From Candidatus Magasanikiibacteriota bacterium (lineage in GTDB: Bacteria; Patescibacteriota; Patescibacteriia; Magasanikbacterales; UBA922): a DNA stretch of 64,000 bases. Below, in pieces: positions 9,216-33,211 of the stretch (positions are counted from its first letter, which is position 1; each line of letters starts with the position of its first letter). The position numbers and the translations under genes are program-made. Below the pieces are notes generated by a model. That model searched no databases and had not been told where the DNA came from. It saw only the letters and a list, made by a program, of their open reading frames with translations. Location: the NCBI GenBank assembly GCA_021648085.1, contig JAKITS010000001.1:816064-880063 (forward strand), given 5' to 3'.

Positions 9216-12200
9216 TCCCAATCTTCACATTTATTAAGTCTCCCTTCCCAGGAATTCCTTTTTTGAGTTTTACCTCTGCTATAAACACATGGTCTCCTTT
9301 TGCCAAAATCTTACTTAAAGTAAAAGTAATTTTCCCATCGAACAAATTGGAAAAATCTGTTATTTCTTCCAAAACAGTTCTTATTCCATCTACATCTTCT
9401 TGGATTATAACAGATTCAATTTGATCAATTTTAAATGGTGTCAAAAAGAAAGTATAAGGAAAATCATTTTTATTAATAATAATATTATTTCCAACCCAAG
9501 TGACGCTCGGTGGTTCAACCCCAGCTATCAATTCAAAAGTTATCTCTTCAATTCGTCTATTTCCCAAATCGTCTTCTGCTGTAATTGTCAAAGTATGTGA
9601 ACCGTCTTGCAAATCGGTAGCATAATAATTCAAATTGAACGGATGAGTTTTTATCACTCCAACATAATTTCCGTTTAGTTGATATGTCACTTTTGCAATT
9701 CCTCTTGGCGAGCTAAAACGAATATCTGTATCAATCTGTCTAGAGCCCAAAGTTGAGCTTGTCGAAGGAAAAATCACTTCAATTGTTGGTGCCATTCCAA
9801 GTGATTCATCTGAATCAAAATCTGCTGGAGGATCTTCAAAACTCACCTCCCAATCTGGATTTGCTTCTTGTTTTCTTTTTATCCAATCTTTAATCGATGC
9901 TTCCCAAATATTATATTGATAATCATTTGCTGGATTTGTTGGGCCCTGCCCACGTGGATTACTTTTTACCAGATAATGCAAAATAGAATGCGGTGGAATA
10001 TAAGTTCGCTCAATTATATTATCTACTGGCGTTGAGCTTGTTGCAATTCTACCTGTTGCCCTGTTTATCATCAGTGTCACACTCCCACCTTTAGACCCTC
10101 TTAAAATAGGTTTTGTAGCAGTATTTGCTGGCGCTCCAGGGAAATATTCCAAAGGAGATCCTTCCAAAGCTTGACTCATAAATGCATTCCAAATTGGACC
10201 AGCAACACGACTTCCGCCATAACCTCTTTTCATTGGAGTATTGTCTGTATTTCCAGCCCAAACTCCTGCAACCAAACTTGGTGTATACCCAATTGTCCAA
10301 GCATCAACATAGCCATTTGTCGTTCCTGTCTTTGCTGCCACCTGCCTCCCAGGAATATTCAAAATACTATTCAATCCAAACGCATAAGCGCGAGCATAAT
10401 TATCACTTAAAACACTAGAAATTGTATTGGTCACCCAGGTTTCTAAAACTCTTTGTGGTCGCTTTCTTTTCCACTCTTCTAAAATCTCTCCTCTATTATC
10501 TATTACTTTCAAAATTGAGACAGATTCTACTTTAGTTCCACCATTTGCAAATACAGAATAAGCAGAAACATGTTCCAACAATTTTACCTCCCCCCCTCCT
10601 AAAACCAAACTAAGTCCAAAATCTCCAGAAGAAAGAGTCGTATATCCTAGACGCTCTGCAAACTCAACACCCTTTTTTGCACCAACCAAATATAAAGTCT
10701 TTACCGCTGGAATATTTAATGAGCCCTGCAAAGCCTGACGCATAGTCACAGGTCCGCGTTCTTGCAAGTCATAATTTCTAGGCATATAAGATCTACCACT
10801 CACGGCAAAATTTGTAAGTACATCAAAAATAATTGTCTCTGGAGTATAGCCCATCTCAAAAGCTGCGGCATAAATAATAGGCTTAAACGACGAACCAGGC
10901 TGACGCTTTCCAAGTGTAGCTACATTAAATTTTCCATCGATATCGTCATTATTAAAATCTTTGGAACCAATCATCGCCAAAATTTGACCAGTTTTTGGAT
11001 CCATCACTACAAGCGAAGTATTGTCCGCATCGGCTTCTGCCAAAACTCTTGTCCCGATATCATTTACAACATTCTCAGCAATCATTTGCTTTTCCCAGTC
11101 GAGTGTTGTTAAAACCCTCAAACCACCCGTGTCCACAAGTTGTTCCCCATATTTTTCTACTAGCTTTTGCTTCACATAAAGTACAAAATGAGGTGATTTT
11201 ATGTCACTATAACGAACTTCCATAAGCAATTCTTCCTCTTGAGCAGAATTCTTTTCTTCTTCAGAAATATAACCCTCGTCGAACATTCTCTGCAATACAA
11301 AATTACGGCGTGTTTTAAGCATTTCTGTATTATTCAAATAAGACGAAGGAGCTTTTGGTATACCGGCCAAAGTCGCAGATTCTGCCAAAGTTAAATCTGT
11401 TACATGTTTTCCAAAATAAGCCTGAGAAGCTGACTCTACACCGTAGTTTGTAGAGCCATAAGGAATTTCATTGAAATAAATTTTTAAAATCTGATCTTTA
11501 CTATATTTCTGCTCCAAACGAAGAGATAATATTATTTCTTTCAGTTTTCTAGTATAAGTCCTCTCGTTGGTCAAAATTGCATTTTTTACCAATTGCTGAG
11601 TCAAAGTAGATGTTCCAGCAATTCTTCTCTCGGTAAATACCCCCATCACCACAGCACGCAAAATACTCAGAGGACGAACTCCATAATGTTCATAAAATTT
11701 TGTATCTTCTGTGGCAATTGCACCATTTATTAAATCTTGTGGAATATCTTCCAATTCTACAATTGTTCTCTTTTTGTCTGCAAAAATCTCATAAAGCAAA
11801 TGTTCGCCTGTTCTATCATAAATTTTTGTACTTTGATCCACATTTCTATCTGTAATCTTATCTGGATCTGGCAAATCTTTGTTTGCCCAAGCTATTAAAA
11901 TAGTCCCAAGAAAAAAACAAAAAACAAAGACTGTTAGCAATGTTAGTCCAATCTTCTTTCTAAATTCACGGCGTTTATACTCTGGAAGTCTAGAATAATA
12001 TTTTTTTACCTTGAATGGCGCAGAAAAAAACTTAGTAAACATCACTAAAGGGATAAAAACAACCCAAACCCAAGACTTGGACTTTTTTAGTCCTTTTTTA
12101 ATCTTTTTTCGGCTATTTTGTATGTATCCGTAAGAACGGTTTTTAAGAGGAGGAATTGGCATATTTTTGCTAAAATTAGCGAAATTTAAAATTATATAAA

Positions 12201-12918: not shown

Positions 12919-14037
12919 TTATTGCCTAATAGGCATCACAATATAAATATAACTATTGTCATTTTTTGGTTTGAGCAAACAAGGTGTATCGCTAGTATTT
13001 ATATTTAAAATAACTTCACTTCCAGAGATTTGTTGCAATCCGTCCAAAACATATCTATGATTCAATAAAATTTCATTTCCATCACCAACAACTTTTGCAT
13101 CTAAACTAGAAGAGTGTTCTCCGGTTTGTGTACTTGTAGAAGAAACAGTCATTTCTCCGTCGCCAATTTTAAAATTCACTGCGTTTACTCCCAAAGTTGT
13201 AAATAAACTTGCAGCTTTTATCTTTTTTACCAAAGATCCGTTTGAAACAGTCGCACCAGTTTTAAATTCCTTGGGGATAATCTGTGTATAATCTGGATAC
13301 TTACCACCCACAAGCCTAGAAGACATTTCAAAATTCGCAAATCTTACAGAAATCTGGTTTTCACTTACCCACAAACGCACATTATTTTCAGCTTGCTCAC
13401 CTTTTAAAGTACCTATCAATCGAACCAATTCTTGAACACTTTTTGAAGGAACAATACATTCAAAACTTTCGTCTCCTTGCGAAATTTCTATTTTCTTTTC
13501 AGCCAATCTGTATGAATCTGTTCCAGCCAAAGTTAGACCTTTAAAACTTGGATTGAAAAATCCAAAATAAACTCCAGATAATTCTTGTCTTATTTCATTT
13601 TTTGCCACAGCTACAACAACTTTTGCCAACGAATCTTTAAAACCTTCTGCCGAAAGTACATATCCATTTTTTTCTTCTATTTCTGGAATAACGGGATAGT
13701 CATCTGCTTCTACACCTTTTATTTTTGTTTTGGAACTTCCACATTTTACGATAAGTTCATTTTCTTCTAAAGAAATATGAATTTGTTCTTCTGGTAAAAG
13801 ATTTATAAAATCAGTCAATGTTTTTGCTGGAACTGTAAAACTTCCTTCGTTTTCTATTTTAGCTCTTAGGTTTGTTTTTATTGCAATTTCCAAATTTGTA
13901 CTCACAAGTTCAACTTTAGAGCCACCTACCTGAATCAATACATTATTTAGTATTGGTAAATTTGTATGTTTATTTGCTATTCCGCTTACTTGGTGTAATA
14001 CGCTTAATAGGTTTTCTCTTGTACATGTGAATTTCAT
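12919..14037 (-). CDS. dnaN: DNA polymerase III beta sliding clamp
   Basis: 372 aa; N-term MKFTCTRENLLSVLHQVSGIANKHTNLPILNNVLIQ typical DnaN; located directly downstream of dnaA. Confidence 0.85.
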   Translation of the reverse strand: MKFTCTRENLLSVLHQVSGIANKHTNLPILNNVLIQVGGSKVELVSTNLEIAIKTNLRAKIENEGSFTVPAKTLTDFINLLPEEQIHISLEENELIVKCGSSKTKIKGVEADDYPVIPEIEEKNGYVLSAEGFKDSLAKVVVAVAKNEIRQELSGVYFGFFNPSFKGLTLAGTDSYRLAEKKIEISQGDESFECIVPSKSVQELVRLIGTLKGEQAENNVRLWVSENQISVRFANFEMSSRLVGGKYPDYTQIIPKEFKTGATVSNGSLVKKIKAASLFTTLGVNAVNFKIGDGEMTVSSTSTQTGEHSSSLDAKVVGDGNEILLNHRYVLDGLQQISGSEVILNINTSDTPCLLKPKNDNSYIYIVMPIRQ

Positions 14038-14139
14038 ATTTTAAAATATTAGTTGAAATCTGAAAATTTGAGTTTCTAGAATTTTATTTTTGTCCTTTCT
14101 ATTAATATATAAATATAAATAGAAGTAGTAGTAATAAGG

Positions 14140-14365
14140 GCTGTGGACAAAGTGGATAACCCTTATTTTTGTTTTGGTTTAGCTAATTTTTGTTTGTTAG
14201 AAATGTGTATCAAGCTGTTAATTTTCTATTAACAACTTGTGTATAAAACTGTTGATAACATTTTGTATGTGGATAACTTACTTTTTGTACACAGGTTATT
14301 CATCTTCTCTCCACAATTTATTCTACATGTTATACATATTTTATCAACAGTTTATCCACTTTTTG
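14140..14365. promoter_or_regulatory. DnaA-box cluster in dnaA-dnaN intergenic region (candidate oriC part)
   Basis: TTATCCACA-like boxes at about 14152 (agtggataac), 14268 (tgtggataact, perfect), 14355 (tttatccact); AT-rich. Confidence 0.6.
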
Positions 14366-14402
14366 TATATAAAATGAATATAAATATTAAACTTTTTACA
14401 AA

Positions 14403-15833: not shown

Positions 15834-15974
15834 AATTATTTTATATGGTTGGTTTTGCTAAAGTATTATTTTTTGAAGAAGGTTAATTTGGTAATAATTC
15901 TTTGTAATAATAAATTGATTTCATTGTAGCACATAACTTATAAACAAAAAATTGTTCTTAATTTAGCCAAAAAA

Positions 15975-16022
15975 TAAAATTGTGTGGATAACTTGGGTAT
16001 ATTATACACAGGTTATCCACAT
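15975..16022. promoter_or_regulatory. DnaA boxes upstream of dnaA (candidate oriC part / dnaA autoregulation)
   Basis: two perfect TTATCCACA boxes (gtgtggataactt at about 15980 and ggttatccacatg at about 16012) in AT-rich dnaA-rpmH intergenic region. Confidence 0.65.
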
Positions 16023-23758: not shown

Positions 23759-25276
23759 CTATTCAACCCTCGCTCTAAATTGTAATGCTTCTGCAATGTG
23801 CTTAGTCTCAAGATTATCTATATTTTCCAGATCTGCAATAGTTCTAGCAAGTTTCAAAATTCTATAGTAACTTCGTGCAGAAAGATGTAATTTTTCTACG
23901 GCCTGTCTTAGTAATTCTTTGGATTCATCGTTTAATTTACAAAATTCACGGATATCTTTTGTACGCATTTCGCTATTTGTGTGATAAGGCAAATTTTCAA
24001 AACGCTCACTTTGTTTTTTTCTTGCATTTTCAACGCGTACACGAATATTTTTAGATGTTTCTGCTAGATCATTTTTTGATAATTTTTCAAATGCTACTCT
24101 TGGTACTTCTACATGCAAATCTATTCTATCCAAAAGTGGTCCGCTAATTTTCTTTTTGTAATGTGCAATTTGAGAAGGGGAGCAGGTACACATTCTGTCT
24201 GGGTCGCTAAAATATCCACACGGACAAGGATTTTGACTTGCAACAAGTGTAAACTGTGCTGGAAATGTTAGGCTTCCTTGTGCTCTAGAAATGGACACTA
24301 CACCATCTTCGAGTGGTTGGCGTAGATTTTCCAGTACAGACCTCGGAAACTCTGGGAATTCATCCAAAAATAGTACTCCACGATGTGCCATAGAAATTTC
24401 TCCGGGTTTTGGAAAGCGACCTCCACCAACTAGTGCAACTGCACTAGCACTATGATGTGGAGCTCTAAATGGACGCTCTGTAATTAAAGCTTTTTTAAAT
24501 AAATTTCCAGAAACAGAATAAATTTTTGTTACCTCTAAAGCTTCTTCTAAAGTCATTTTTGGTAAAATACTTGGGAAGGTTCTGGCTAAAAGTGTTTTTC
24601 CAGACCCAGGAGGTCCAGAAAGAAGTATGTTGTGAGCACCACTCGCTGCTATTTCTAAAGCTCTTTTTGCAAATTCTTGTCCTTTTACATGAGCCATGTC
24701 GAGCTCGTATAAATTTTCTGTAAACCATTCTTCCGGATTTTGTGGTTGCACAGGCTCCATTTTTTTAATATTTGTAATATGTTCAACCAATTCTTTAAAA
24801 TTTGAAACAGAATAAATTTCAATTCCAGAGACAAGACCAGCCTCTTTTACATTTTGAGCTGGGACAAAAAGTCGTTTAAAATTATTTTTTTTTGCAAACA
24901 ACGCGATAGGAAGTATGCCATTTGCAGAGCGAACACTTCCGTCCAATGCCAATTCCCCCACAAACAAACTATCATCAAAAGTATTTTTCATTTTTTGGCT
25001 TGCCAAAAACATCCCAATCGCCATCGGTAAATCGTAATGAGAACCTTCTTTGCGCACATCTGCTGGCGCCAAATTTACAATTATTTTGTGATTGCTAGGA
25101 AATTGCAACCCAGCATTTTTCCACGCTGTCCTTATCCTTTCTTTTGCCTCCTGAATGGCAGCATCTGGTAAACCAACTATTTGATAACCGGGCCAACTTC
25201 CAGAAACATCCACTTCTACATCAATCTGTGCACATCCTAAACCAAGAACCCCTGCAGAATTAATTTTACAAAACAT
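23759..25276 (-). CDS. comM: Mg-chelatase-like AAA+ protein YifB/ComM
   Basis: 505 aa; N-terminal Lon-protease-like domain, Walker A GPPGSGKT, zinc-ribbon-like CPCGYF...CTC, C-terminal helical domain. Confidence 0.9.
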   Translation of the reverse strand: MFCKINSAGVLGLGCAQIDVEVDVSGSWPGYQIVGLPDAAIQEAKERIRTAWKNAGLQFPSNHKIIVNLAPADVRKEGSHYDLPMAIGMFLASQKMKNTFDDSLFVGELALDGSVRSANGILPIALFAKKNNFKRLFVPAQNVKEAGLVSGIEIYSVSNFKELVEHITNIKKMEPVQPQNPEEWFTENLYELDMAHVKGQEFAKRALEIAASGAHNILLSGPPGSGKTLLARTFPSILPKMTLEEALEVTKIYSVSGNLFKKALITERPFRAPHHSASAVALVGGGRFPKPGEISMAHRGVLFLDEFPEFPRSVLENLRQPLEDGVVSISRAQGSLTFPAQFTLVASQNPCPCGYFSDPDRMCTCSPSQIAHYKKKISGPLLDRIDLHVEVPRVAFEKLSKNDLAETSKNIRVRVENARKKQSERFENLPYHTNSEMRTKDIREFCKLNDESKELLRQAVEKLHLSARSYYRILKLARTIADLENIDNLETKHIAEALQFRARVE

Positions 25277-25277
25277 A

Positions 25278-25781
25278 TTATTGCTTTTTCTTTAAGCTCG
25301 GAACTACAAGTATCAGCCCCCCTACTATTATCATAATATCCGCTATATTTATAACCGATGTGAACACCCTAAAGTAATCTACCACAAAACCAAGAAATAC
25401 ACGATCTATTAAATTTGAGATGGCTCCTGCAATAACAAGAGATGTTCCAAAAATAAGCCAAAACTTTTTTTTCTTGGTTTTCATTAGAAAAATAATTAAA
25501 CTTGCAATTATAATTGGTATAAATGTGATTAGCAAGAATTTTGGCATAGGAAGACTAAAAGCAATGCCATAGTTTTCATAATATTCCCACCCGACTATAT
25601 TTTTAATTAAATAATAGCTTTTAGATGGATTGTTTACAGCCATACTTTTTAGACTCTGATCCAAAAACAAAAAAAACCCAGATAAAAAAGTTGCTCCTAA
25701 AAGCATTTTTGCACAGAGTATTTTTTGCTTGCTTAAAGCCATTTTAAGCTTCTTCTTTGATTGTTTTTTTACAACTAACAC
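25278..25781 (-). CDS. lspA: lipoprotein signal peptidase II
   Basis: 167 aa, 4 TM; conserved NxGxAF-like GIAFSL and NLIDRVFLGFVVDYF motifs. Confidence 0.8.
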   Translation of the reverse strand: MLVVKKQSKKKLKMALSKQKILCAKMLLGATFLSGFFLFLDQSLKSMAVNNPSKSYYLIKNIVGWEYYENYGIAFSLPMPKFLLITFIPIIIASLIIFLMKTKKKKFWLIFGTSLVIAGAISNLIDRVFLGFVVDYFRVFTSVINIADIMIIVGGLILVVPSLKKKQ

Positions 25782-26118
25782 AAGATCCTGAAGTTGGTCG
25801 TGCTCGTAGTCTTCTTTTGTCTATAGGTTTGTCGCAGTATTTACAAATACCATAAGACCTTTTCTCTATTGAAGTTAGTGCTTTGTTTACGTCGCGCAAC
25901 AACTTTTCCAAGTTTATCTCCAAAGGCTTGTTTACAGCATATTGCTCCATTTCTTGCACATTATCATCTTCATCATCTCCATATTCTGGATAGTTTGCCT
26001 CAAAATCTCCTTTTATCTTAGGATTTTTACGAGTAAATTTAGAAAGCTCTCTTTCTAAACGAGTCTTATCTTTTAGTAATTTTTCTTTTATTTCCCCTAC
26101 AAATTTTGGATCATGCAT
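25744..26118 (-). CDS. DksA/TraR-family C4 zinc-finger protein
   Basis: 124 aa; C-terminal CKYCDKPI...CVSCKK four-Cys finger, N-terminal coiled-coil; overlaps lspA start by 38 nt. Confidence 0.7.
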   Translation of the reverse strand: MHDPKFVGEIKEKLLKDKTRLERELSKFTRKNPKIKGDFEANYPEYGDDEDDNVQEMEQYAVNKPLEINLEKLLRDVNKALTSIEKRSYGICKYCDKPIDKRRLRARPTSGSCVSCKKTIKEEA

Positions 26119-26179
26119 ATTGTTCTACTATTTAAAGTGCTTCTATTATATGAAATAATTCGATTTTTTGCAATAGCTC

Positions 26180-26430
26180 GTAAGAAGAACAAGAAATAAA
26201 TACACATCATCCCGAACAAAGCGAAGTACAAAATACTCACATATTATCCCAAACAAAACGCAAAATATACACACGTCATCCTGAGCGAAGCCGAAGGATC
26301 TCGAAACAATATCACCAAAACATAAAAATAGTGAAACAAACACGAGATATTTCGACTCCACTTCGTTTTGTTTAGTATGATGTGAAGTCCTTTTGTCATT
26401 CCCGACCCCGATCGGGAATCCAGGAGTCTT
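26180..26430. mobile_element. MITE-like copy (26273-26383) plus flanking modules (gtcattcccgaccccgatcgggaatccaggagtc)
   Basis: cacgtcatcctgagcgaagccgaaggatctcgaaac ... cacgagatatttcgactccacttcgttttgtttagtatgatgtg. Confidence 0.85.
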
Positions 26431-26454
26431 TATTCACAGATAATAAAAGAAAGA

Positions 26455-26735
26455 ACAGGAAAGTAGTGTGTTTACTTATTTAAACAAACAAAAAAGGCGT
26501 CCGAATGAGCCTAATAGTTATATTTGCTCTGGACGCCTTGTTTATAGTTCGTCTTCTTTAAGTACGATATTTTCGCAATCTCTGCGAAAGGTATTATTAC
26601 TTAAGGAAGACTCTCTTTACCCCACAGAGGTAGAGCCCTCGGTTCGTCATATAAACGACGAACAATAGTGAAGGTTACCAGTCCAGCTTACGGTTGTTGC
26701 GTCTCATAAGTGCCTTAGGAGACTTTTTTATTTTT
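26455..26735. ncRNA. candidate structured small RNA (unclassified), strand uncertain
   Basis: about 280-bp ORF-free, unusually GC-richer segment with long imperfect stem-loops (gtcttctttaagta...tacttaaggaagac; gttcgtc..gacgaac); intrinsic terminators at both edges (26495-26540 facing minus; 26700-26735 facing plus). Confidence 0.35.
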
Positions 26736-27004
26736 GTTTTTGTTTTTTTGTCCGAAGATAATTGGACAGCTTTTTGAAATGAAAGAGCATTAAAACGCAA
26801 CAATTATAAGCTGGAAAGAGTAGAGTGAAAGAGGTCGATGTAACTCGCAAATAGAACTTTGTGAATTACAGCGTTTGTCAATGAACTATGTCTATATTAT
26901 GCCATATTTTTTAGAGTTTGTCAATGTTGGTGGGATTAGTTTAAATTTGGCTAAATTAAGCCAGTTTTTTTGAACACAAAAGTGTGTGTTAGTAAATACA
27001 AAAA

Positions 27005-27216
27005 AAATTGTGGATAAATTTAAAAAGTTATCCACAGATTTACTAAGTTATCCACAAGTTATCCACATTTTATATTTTTTGTGTAGGACTGAATAATTAT
27101 TTTTGGAGAGTTAGCTGTGTACAAAATGTGTACAACCTGTGGATTTTTCGTGGAAAACTTGAAAATAAAGGCTTGTATAAAATATGTGAACAGACATAAA
27201 AGTTTAGTGTGGATAA
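27005..27216. promoter_or_regulatory. cluster of five perfect DnaA boxes (TTATCCACA) in AT-rich intergenic region
   Basis: ttgtggataaatt (27008), gttatccacag (27038), gttatccacaag (27050), ttatccacatt (27060), gtgtggataagtt (27207); about 11 kb from dnaA. Confidence 0.7.
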
Positions 27217-27313
27217 GTTTAAAATTGAAAAATTTATATATTATTTAAAATGATTTAGTATTTTGTTATTTTTCAAATAATAAAATACCCTCAATTTTTC
27301 AATTGAGGGTAAA

Positions 27314-27394
27314 TACCGGAAACGGGAATCGAACCCGTACGCTTTAAGGCGGGAGATTTTAAGTCTCCTGTGTATACCATTTCACCATTCCGGC
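27314..27394 (-). tRNA. tRNA-Leu (UAA), copy 1
   Basis: minus-strand GCCGGAATGGTGAAATGGTATACACAGGAGACTTAAAATCTCC + long variable arm + CGGGTTCGATTCCCG; anticodon loop CUUAAAA; own promoter (TTGACA-17-TAATTT, minus, about 27420-27455). Confidence 0.8.
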
Positions 27395-27667
27395 ACAAGA
27401 AATTAAAAAATAATGAACTATTTATGAAATTATCATATTTTTTGTTTTTTGTCAATCTTTTTGGATTAAATTTTGGATAAATTATAAAAATAAATATATT
27501 TATTCATTCCCACAACAAAAAAACAGCAATACTGCTGTTTTTGTGCCGCGTTCGAGGGTCTCCCTGTGTAGTTTTGGTTTTCACCAAACCTACCCTTCGA
27601 TTCCCGACATGACACAAGACTTTGTGTCATTCCCACAACAAAAAAACAGCAATACTGCTGTTTTTTG

Positions 27668-27752
27668 TGCCGCGGGCGGGAATCGAACCCGCACTCCTTT
27701 AGGGGGAACAGGATTTTAAGTCCTGCGTGTCTACCAATTCCACCACCGCGGC
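27668..27752 (-). tRNA. tRNA-Leu (UAA), copy 2
   Basis: minus-strand GCCGCGGTGGTGGAATTGGTAGACACGCAGGACTTAAAATCCTG + long variable arm + TTCGATTCCCGCCCGCGGCA; immediately followed by hairpin terminator 27640-27667. Confidence 0.85.
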
Positions 27753-27912
27753 AGGGGTTTGTATGTTTGAAGACAGTCCCATTATGTCTTAATTTTTACA
27801 AAAAGTCAAGATTTATCCTTTTTAGCTTGACAAAAGAGGTTGAAGATGGTATTTTATAATGCATCAGTAACATAGTGTTGCTGGTGTTCAGTTTCAACAT
27901 GGAGGAAGGAAA

Positions 27913-28542
27913 ATGGGCGACAGAGGTCTTTATATGAATAATAATTGGTTTGGTGACATCAATAAATCTGATGACACAAAAAATAAAATAAAACAAACAC
28001 AAAAAAGTGTGCGACATCTTGTGATTGATGCAAGAGTTAAAGCACAAAAGTCCGCTAAAAGAATTTTGGAAGAGGTGGAGCTTCGTGTCCGCGTAATGGA
28101 TAGTAGGTTGGTGGAGTTCATTGTATTTGTCATGGCGAATGAGTGGATCCAGCAAAGTTATTTAGGAATTGACGAGGAACTTAAGAACCTATCACTTCGT
28201 CCACTTTCCTTAGCTCTTGCTCTTCAAGCCAGCTTTTGGGATGGTTTGTTGAAAGAAATTGAAGACAATGAAAATTTAGATATTTCAGCTTTTATTCTAG
28301 AGACAAGAGATAAGGCTATTGTCTCTGGTCAGTTGTTTGTGGAGGATATGAAGCCTTGTTATGAGGAACTTCTTCAAAGATTAAAAAATATAAAAGATCT
28401 GATTTTAGAAATGAAAGGTATGAAAGCCGCTTCAGATTTTGGTAAAATTAAGAATTGTTTTACTTTTACTAGCTACACCCCACTTTCTGTTGCTCTTCGT
28501 GAGCAAAAAAGAGTGTGGGATGAGTTGGTTGAAAAGATCTAA
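27913..28542 (+). CDS. hypothetical protein
   Basis: 209 aa, good RBS (GGAGGAAGGAAAATG); no recognisable family; acidic/helical. Confidence 0.45.
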   Translation: MGDRGLYMNNNWFGDINKSDDTKNKIKQTQKSVRHLVIDARVKAQKSAKRILEEVELRVRVMDSRLVEFIVFVMANEWIQQSYLGIDEELKNLSLRPLSLALALQASFWDGLLKEIEDNENLDISAFILETRDKAIVSGQLFVEDMKPCYEELLQRLKNIKDLILEMKGMKAASDFGKIKNCFTFTSYTPLSVALREQKRVWDELVEKI

Positions 28543-32917: not shown

Positions 32918-33211
32918 AATTTTTTGTTAGTAGACCTATTTCAAAATAAGATTTTGAAATAGGTCTGTTTTATAAATAAAGAACAAAGTAGAAGTTTTTA
33001 GACAATATCTTTGAAGAAGATAAAACACTATATATAGTGTCTATTATTTATTTAACATACTAGATATTGTATTTTGCTGTAAAATTATTATATCACATTT
33101 CAAAAAAATGTTATCCACAACATGTTGATAATGTTTTTTGAAATTGACATACGCTTAATGATATTGCTATAAATAAACCGCTATAAACTCATTAAAAAAT
33201 GGAGGTAATAG

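Follow-up and report, generated by a model that had tools for sequence, protein, structure and literature searches.

A DnaA-box cluster outside oriC in a Patescibacteria genome, a probable regulatory element upstream of a structured-RNA promoter beside dksA

DnaA boxes placed outside the origin of replication have been described in several bacteria. In Pseudomonas aeruginosa, the boxes of oriCII stand ahead of the gidA promoter, and their action is on transcription (PMC13438810). Bacillus subtilis carries six oriC-external clusters, those at sda, ywlC and yydA among them, some of which regulate their neighbours and which jointly restrain initiation (PMC2533591, PMC3245932). The promoters of the Escherichia coli DnaA regulon have a preferred site consisting of two boxes 2-3 bp apart (PMC11317965), and the core of the DARS elements is built from boxes I and II in opposite orientation with a 5-bp space, box III standing in tandem with box II (PMC6868365). 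Strand opening itself relies on a basal unwinding system of DnaA-trios, a GC spacer and tandem boxes, which was defined in B. subtilis and is found across bacteria (PMC8287927, PMC6669920). The origins and DnaA regulons of CPR bacteria, a group not yet available in pure culture, have scarcely been studied.

Here we analyse a cluster of DnaA boxes in a Patescibacteria (CPR) genome of 33% G+C, within one stretch of 64,000 nucleotides that we call the window. In genome and metagenome scans, the best relatives of its YifB come from Patescibacteria MAGs, with the Magasanikbacteria type on top, none of them above 70% identity; the five-box layout was compared between species only. The window contains nine exact TTATCCACA sites against 0.64 +/- 0.67 expected, a number that none of 100 shuffles reached, and five of the nine are concentrated within 208 bp at 27009-27216, the densest group of perfect boxes in the window, 11-13 kb from dnaA (Table 1). 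An earlier sequence-only reading had noticed five exact boxes within 210 bp of ORF-free DNA next to two tRNA-Leu genes; the boxes are far beyond chance expectation, no credible ORF lies in 26362-27312, and both tRNA genes are where it saw them. Its three head-to-tail boxes exist as well, but at 27028-27067 and not at 27038-27070, and its remark that the dnaA flanks have only 2-3 boxes each is true of exact matches alone, as allowing one mismatch raises the count to seven in the dnaA-dnaN spacer and three upstream of dnaA.

We read this cluster as probably being an upstream element through which DnaA regulates the promoter of a non-coding RNA, and potentially dksA behind it, and not as an origin. 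Like oriCII of P. aeruginosa (PMC13438810), it is a second group of boxes near the origin, placed ahead of a promoter; unlike oriCII, its target would be a structured non-coding RNA followed by dksA rather than gidAB-parAB, its host is a CPR bacterium, its role is read from sequence alone, and its distance to dnaA varies among relatives. With the B. subtilis clusters it shares the dense, high-affinity intergenic boxes by which those are recognised outside oriC (PMC2533591), and both organisms appear to have a bipartite oriC flanking dnaA. The Bacillus clusters are, however, mostly origin-proximal and differ in their neighbours from species to species, whereas for the CPR module proximity to the origin does not appear to be conserved, and its partner (the RNA with dksA) and box-promoter spacing are, across deep lineages. 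As at E. coli regulon sites (PMC11317965), the 27048 and 27059 boxes form a same-orientation pair upstream of a promoter, and this pair, spaced 2 bp apart here, is the core that the module has conserved; the window differs from those sites in its three extra perfect boxes, and the module in a co-occurring 22-24 bp palindrome that suggests a second factor. The E. coli datA, DARS1 and DARS2 sites are likewise non-coding box clusters outside oriC, datA also beside a tRNA operon, but a consensus scan of 26900-27300 finds no match here to the IHF consensus WATCAANNNNTTR, the inverted boxes are wrongly spaced, and the link is to a promoter rather than to control of the nucleotide state of DnaA. DnaA-box clusters away from the origin are, then, a known kind of element; the RNA target is unusual and apparently undescribed, and our literature search found nothing on this RNA or on DnaA-box clusters in CPR bacteria.

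Table 1. Features of the window, with positions counted from its first nucleotide; boxes are perfect unless stated otherwise.
Feature	Position	Strand	Remarks
PBP1A gene			Gene call; followed by dnaN and dnaA
dnaN	12919-14037	-	Gene call
Probable unwinding half of oriC, dnaA-dnaN spacer	14040-14400		Trio search, box scan, skew
AT-rich tract in dnaA-dnaN spacer	14096-14120		14096 tract in lowest 0.08% of stability
DnaA-trios TAG AAG TAG TAG TAA TAA	14121-14138		Followed by GGGC spacer
Tandem boxes TGTGGACAA, AGTGGATAA	14142-14159		Five further boxes (<=1 mismatch) out to 14360
dnaA	14403-15833	-	Gene call
dnaA/rpmH intergenic boxes	15983-16021		Two perfect, one with 1 mismatch
rpmH/rnpA/yidD		+	Beyond dnaA; then inositol-monophosphatase-family protein, trigger factor and M23 peptidase genes
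yifB/comM-like gene	23759-25276	-	Downstream of structured RNA
lspA	25278-25781	-	Downstream of structured RNA
dksA-like gene	25744-26118	-	Always travels with the module
Predicted structured transcript, ORF-free, ~400 nt	26490-26889	-	Fold and covariation
Intrinsic terminator of structured RNA (hairpin and T-run)	26490-26537	-	dksA next
A-rich single-stranded motif in structured RNA	26723-26750	-
rrn-boxA-like motif GTTCATTGACAAAC	26873-26886	-	At ~+3 of the transcript
Predicted sigma-70-type promoter TTGACA-17-(tg)CATAAT	26896-26924	-	11/12 consensus positions; reads leftward, away from boxes
CTGGCTTAATTTAGCCAAA motif	26944-26964	-	Between boxes and -35
DnaA box	27009-27017	-	Opposite in orientation to the tandem trio; nearest to promoter
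Three tandem DnaA boxes	27028-27036, 27048-27056, 27059-27067	+	Exact TTATCCACA scan
TGTACA-type repeat (cTGTGTACAAAATGTGTACAAcc), then 2-mismatch box TGTGGATTT	27117-27147		Repeat at 27117-27138
Fifth DnaA box, distal	27208-27216	-	~290 bp upstream of -35
AT-rich tract of low duplex stability	27217-27290		Between distal box and tRNA-Leu terminator
tRNA-Leu(UAA) no. 1	27313-27395	-	Terminator 27286-27311
tRNA-Leu(UAA) no. 2	27667-27752	-
nrdB-nrdA		-	Past the tRNA-Leu pair; mostly plus-strand genes from 33.2 kb on

The predicted strong promoter is the best match of its kind within 26000-28000, and the boxes stand 90-290 bp upstream of its -35 element with no overlap of the core promoter. Read on the minus strand, the tandem trio takes the form TGTGGATAA-ct-TGTGGATAA-11 nt-TGTGGATAA, directed at the promoter. 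At such distances a direct effect of the boxes on RNA polymerase is not guaranteed. The boxes also have company: in relatives they are flanked by a 22-24 bp palindrome, TTTGTATA(c/g)ACTAGT(c/g)TATACAAA, present one to three times, and the repeat at 27117-27147 in the window is its degenerate counterpart. In locus L004 (L numbers designate the loci of relatives) the palindrome additionally surrounds a tRNA-Arg gene; its presence there as well as beside the boxes suggests a second DNA-binding factor. We considered NrdR as the binder and set it aside, the NrdR-like box upstream of nrdA being different in sequence.

The arrangement recurs in relatives in a constant order, namely tandem boxes with 2-3 bp spacers, a minus-strand promoter, a boxA-like motif, the RNA, its terminator and dksA (with or without lspA and yifB). 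Boxes, promoter, an ORF-free RNA of 300-440 nt, terminator and dksA are present in L004, L008, L014, L015, L020, L021, L030 and L046, and the same architecture was found in L070, L082, L083, L084, L094, L102, L117 and L129. In L020 and L004, for example, boxes and a TTGACA/TATA(C/G)T promoter are followed by a non-coding RNA of ~350-440 nt with its terminator and by dksA-lspA-yifB, and L082 has three perfect tandem boxes between yifB and dksA. Across 160 loci, the cluster tracks dksA and not yifB, tRNA genes or dnaA. Homologous promoters were identified in 17 relatives. Our survey of boxes at promoters covered 18 loci in which a promoter is recognisable: boxes (<=1 mismatch) occur 70-215 bp upstream of -35 at 17 of these promoters, the eighteenth having 70 bp of sequence only, and at 6.66 per kb they are 14-fold denser there than over the remainder of these loci (0.47 per kb). 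Of 48 boxes, 36 share one orientation, and most boxes read TGTGGATAA toward the promoter. Finer details of the layout are retained as well: box pairs with a 2-3 bp spacer recur in ten loci (L004, L014, L020, L021, L030, L082, L084, L094, L102, L129), start-to-start spacings of 11-12 and 20 nt, as in the window, in L082, L084 and L020, an inverted promoter-proximal box in L020, L083 and L102, and distal boxes at -200 to -400 in L015, L046, L082 and L084. When the non-coding region was compared with the loci by blastn, matches were limited to boxes, promoter and A-runs. Most relatives have two to three boxes, and the window copy exceeds every one of them in the number and quality of its boxes; a surplus of good boxes would equally be expected if the site had been selected for titration.

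Downstream of the promoter, the predicted RNA is highly structured. Its minimum free energy in the window is -134 kcal/mol against -76 +/- 4.9 kcal/mol for shuffled sequences (z = -11.8), and the homologue in L046 also folds better than expected (z = -4.9). The sole ORF in 26362-27312, 66 codons long with a GTG start at 26468-26668(+), runs antisense to this RNA. An Rfam 15 covariance-model search brought only tRNAs to the gathering score, and the RNA copies from the window, L046 and L004 had no credible Rfam match at E <= 1-10. RNase P RNA, tmRNA, 6S RNA, SRP RNA, a group I intron and rRNA fragments were considered as identities and dropped for want of Rfam or ARAGORN support. Inside the RNA lies a near-invariant AAAACAAAAACAAAA stretch, and the helix that encloses it varies in sequence among lineages with its pairing retained. 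RNAalifold finds in a 7-sequence core alignment a 13-bp long-range helix in which 6 of the 13 pairs are compensatory; alignments made with MAFFT in plain mode, whether of the full RNA or a 12-sequence core, were too poor for this and yielded 0 pairs, and the output of an automatic helix picker was discarded after it had selected non-homologous helices. A covariance model built from the seven sequences matches the window copy at 26676-26784 (E = 0.078) and, weakly, syntenic positions in L074, L091, L092, L007, L095 and L083, several of these matches being marginal (E 0.08-0.55) and accepted mainly from their syntenic position. Paired cells make up 87% of the resulting 15-sequence alignment, compared with 67% for shuffles and 44-53% for slid controls; double changes occur in 10 of the 13 pairs. 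These counts are biased toward structure by the fitting of the alignment to the model.

Near its 5' end the transcript would carry a motif that resembles the rrn antitermination boxA, GCTCTTTAACAA; the position of the motif is conserved among relatives, where it reads GCTCTTTAAACAA (L094), GCTCTTTAACCAA (L102) and GTTCTTTGAAAAAC (L020); GATCTTTCAACAA is also found. boxA elements have been described ahead of long untranslated RNAs (PMC7665894), and the motif may serve as one here, at the head of an RNA that is presumably functional. Neither the window nor the scanned loci contain an rRNA operon.

In the mechanism that we propose, DnaA would bind in vivo to the 2-bp-spaced tandem pair and the neighbouring boxes cooperatively, centred ~90-145 bp upstream of -35, and a further factor would probably occupy the TGTA(T)ACA repeat or palindrome beside them. 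Binding of DnaA would then modulate transcription of the boxA-led, highly structured RNA of ~400 nt. Activation seems likelier than repression, since the boxes lie upstream of the core promoter without overlapping it. Expression of dksA-lspA-yifB may be affected too, either through read-through or jointly with a promoter of dksA's own. Five consensus boxes 11-13 kb from oriC would soak up DnaA soon after initiation, so that titration would come as a side effect, and for this five-box, origin-proximal copy we regard such a secondary effect as likely.

More tentatively, and with our doubts outweighing our confidence, we propose that the DnaA boxes and the co-conserved palindrome control an undescribed class of RNA (300-440 nt, boxA-led, with the AAAACAAAAACAAAA loop and a covarying closing helix) that has become fixed beside dksA across Patescibacteria. 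If this were true, the status of replication initiation would be coupled, with no intermediary, to both a stable RNA and a regulator of RNA polymerase in these reduced genomes. More generally, a DnaA-box module of fixed geometry before an unclassified RNA and dksA, in many CPR lineages, offers a regulatory link that can be tested; should DnaA control the promoter, the pair would be among the few of transcription factor and target that can be inferred for CPR bacteria, and it would point to a new RNA family worth characterising.

The cluster might instead be purely a sink or inactivation site for DnaA, of the B. subtilis cluster or E. coli datA type, with its adjacency to a promoter incidental. 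We hold this to be unlikely, yet it has the best claim among the alternatives: the five consensus boxes crowd into 208 bp at 11-13 kb from dnaA, there are more perfect ones than in any relative, and in B. subtilis initiation is held back by clusters that lie near the origin but outside oriC, a type reportedly frequent in Firmicutes and Actinobacteria (PMC3245932, PMC2533591). The position downstream of tRNA genes is also that of datA in E. coli (PMC10950094), but the tRNA neighbour is not conserved beside the module in relatives, and the consensus scan of 26900-27300 gave no IHF match. Distance and orientation to the promoter have been kept across very divergent genomes, most of which have few boxes, and at 11 of the 18 loci dnaA is absent from the fetched flanks (<=10 kb per side), the module-dnaA distance being 4.6-12 kb in L004, L008, L020 and L094; such a pattern is more in keeping with a promoter element than with a sink that works by dosage. 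In B. subtilis some clusters serve both purposes, and to that extent the two readings overlap.

A true, second or bipartite origin, in which DnaA would assemble at the 27-kb cluster and open the AT tract at 27217-27290, had been among the earlier suggestions, and we consider it highly improbable. In its favour, no denser cluster of perfect boxes exists in the window, and the adjoining tract, whose 40-mer at 27218 falls in the lowest 0.2% of duplex stability, has the look of a DNA-unwinding element. An easily melted sequence near 27000, which the sequence-only reading had named as something to look for, is present, but tracts of such stability are common in a window of 67% A+T, and this one comes without DnaA-trios. 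We searched both strands of the whole 64-kb window for unwinding modules by the rules of PMC8287927. The 27-kb cluster shows no TAG/TAA-type trios and no GC spacer, having only NAN triplets within A-runs; the single best module, and the one strong one, is at 14121-14159 in the dnaA-dnaN spacer, where trios, GC spacer and the same kind of boxes as in the basal system (PMC8287927, PMC6669920) come together at the modal 13-bp spacer. The trio arrangement is conserved at dnaA-dnaN in L008, L020 and L094 and, more weakly, in L004. The unwinding site of this lineage therefore probably occupies the classical dnaA-dnaN position, and the boxes between dnaA and rpmH would form the other half of a bipartite oriC of the B. 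subtilis kind, as well as the autoregulatory region of dnaA. A denser cluster of perfect boxes can evidently mislead as a guide to the origin.

Strand composition leads to the same place once gene orientation is accounted for. The raw cumulative GC skew has a low plateau at ~21.5-33 kb and its minimum at 32.5-33 kb, where gene orientation flips, and so does not single out the dnaA-dnaN region; since this minimum follows gene orientation, we used per-gene models instead, in which GC3 is the sum of a coding-strand effect and a replication-strand effect. The best switch in GC3 then lies at 12.75-14.25 kb, with 27 kb worse by 18.7 log-likelihood units (~10 once the overdispersion of 1.78 is allowed for; the models draw on few genes) and 33 kb worse by 28, and AT3 skew independently puts the switch at 11-15 kb. 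In L008 and L094 the same GC3 method recovers a switch at dnaN/dnaA. At the modules of L082, L083, L014, L046, L102, L015 and L084 it finds no switch (penalties of 15-41 log-likelihood units), and in L021 a switch at the module is weakly disfavoured (2.1 units); in L117 and L070 a switch there fits better, by 2.4 and 4 units, but with the opposite sign, which leaves these two uninformative. The lack of a skew switch at the modules of most relatives whose fetched loci lack dnaA implies that the module is not an origin in those genomes. Gene orientation, by contrast, agrees more closely with an origin at 27-33 kb than at 14 kb: if replication started at 14.2 kb, most of the genes from 18 to 33 kb, ~12 kb in all, would be transcribed head-on to replication, which is unusual. 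The dnaA region has been rearranged between L020 on the one hand and the window and L004 on the other, so local gene order is evidently fluid.

The chance that the boxes serve to regulate the neighbouring tRNA-Leu genes is slimmer still. A 1-mismatch box is found at 27472-27480, immediately upstream of a repeat that looks like a promoter for tRNA-Leu no. 1 and is 73% similar to the promoter region of the non-coding RNA (repeats D2, D3 and D7), but the five perfect boxes are downstream of that tRNA gene, beyond its terminator, and the module of relatives has no adjacent tRNA genes. Of the two targets that the sequence-only reading had offered for a DnaA-regulated promoter, the tRNA is thus disfavoured and the non-coding RNA retained, the latter on the strength of a promoter with 11 of 12 consensus positions, the conserved spacing of the boxes, and the fold and covariation of the RNA. 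Least credible of all is a DARS-like site, at which oppositely oriented boxes would promote release of ADP from DnaA: the inverted 27009 box and the three tandem boxes do recall the inverted-plus-tandem pattern of DARS boxes I-III, but the inverted pair 27009/27028 is 10 bp apart instead of 5 bp (9 to >60 bp in relatives) and 26900-27300 lacks an IHF consensus match. Of the datA- or DARS-like roles once suggested, we retain titration only. Fis and DARS are not known to occur beyond the Proteobacteria.

The DNA between the boxes and the promoter also has a counterpart elsewhere in the window. A 15-mer, CTTAATTTAGCCAAA, of the CTGGCTTAATTTAGCCAAA motif recurs at 15957-15971, next to the boxes that lie upstream of dnaA/rpmH. 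Across the window the TTTAGCCAAA motif shows no enrichment, but two of its three exact copies adjoin box clusters.

A canonical bipartite oriC flanks dnaA (first two rows of the table), and three IHF-consensus matches (14208, 14342 and 15908) lie in the dnaA flanks. The dnaA-dnaN spacer arrangement is kept in the relatives' loci L008, L020 and L094 and is weaker in a fourth, L004. Both the unwinding module of this spacer and the GC3/AT3 skew place the origin at ~14 kb, whereas the switch in gene orientation and in raw GC skew comes near 33 kb, which leaves ~12 kb of head-on genes (tig, the yifB operon, tRNA-Leu and nrdAB). Relative to the window and L004, dnaA-dnaN versus yifB is inverted in L020, L008 and L094. 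The public records of L002, L004, L008 and L020 are titled 'uncultured Gammaproteobacteria'; their gene content and similarity are clearly like those of the candidate phyla radiation (CPR), and the titles are probably mislabelling.

The five perfect DnaA boxes at ~27 kb belong to a module whose structured RNA, always followed by a dksA-like gene in CPR loci, is 300-440 nt long. This RNA carries a boxA-like motif at its 5' end and contains an invariant AAAACAAAAACAAAA stretch; its closing helix covaries, and Rfam holds no match for it. A 22-24 bp palindrome, TTTGTATA(c/g)ACTAGT(c/g)TATACAAA, flanks the module's DnaA boxes, and four further occurrences surround a tRNA-Arg gene in L004. We consider this palindrome probably to be the operator of a putative regulator. 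In addition, one identical 15-mer occurs next to the boxes upstream of dnaA and again next to those at 27 kb; relatives' modules carry similar TTAGCCAAA/GGCTAA motifs, and the 10-mer showed no enrichment across the window.

Beyond these boxes, the ncRNA promoter region has a 73% copy upstream of the first tRNA-Leu gene (27434-27481), with a DnaA box directly upstream of the copy's TTGACA. At the tRNA-Leu pair, the terminator and the sequence past it occur twice, as a perfect 39-nt direct repeat (27504-27542 and 27627-27665); this suggests a local partial duplication or insertion. Small REP-like repeats (gtcattcccgac...gatcgggaatcc) are dispersed among intergenic regions. Upstream of nrdA (33024-33131) lie a perfect, NrdR-box-like 16-bp palindrome, ACACTATATATAGTGT, with a second, weaker copy, and an inverted DnaA-box pair directly upstream of the TTGACA promoter of the divergent band-7/HflC-like gene.

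Coordinates of features in the window and in relatives' loci
Feature	Window	Relatives	Detail
oriC, dnaA-dnaN spacer	14040-14400		AT-rich tract, six DnaA-trios, GGGC, tandem boxes; spacer 13 bp
oriC, second part	15983-16021
Shared 15-mer	15957-15971 (+), 26946-26960 (-)		CTTAATTTAGCCAAA
Structured RNA	26490-26889 (-)	L004 7469-7912; L020 3405-3752; L046 6953-7296; others	unclassified
Palindrome	27117-27138	L004 3209-3620, 7337-7360; L008 8494/8618; L082 11982; L094 7932/8034	window copy degenerate
tRNA-Leu pair	27313-27752		common anticodon UAA; sequences differ, column identity 85%
DnaA box	27472-27480		TTATCCAAA; one mismatch
REP-like repeats	26385-26427, 27592-27634	L020 ~9355-9395
Inverted DnaA-box pair	33111, 33123		perfect; one mismatch
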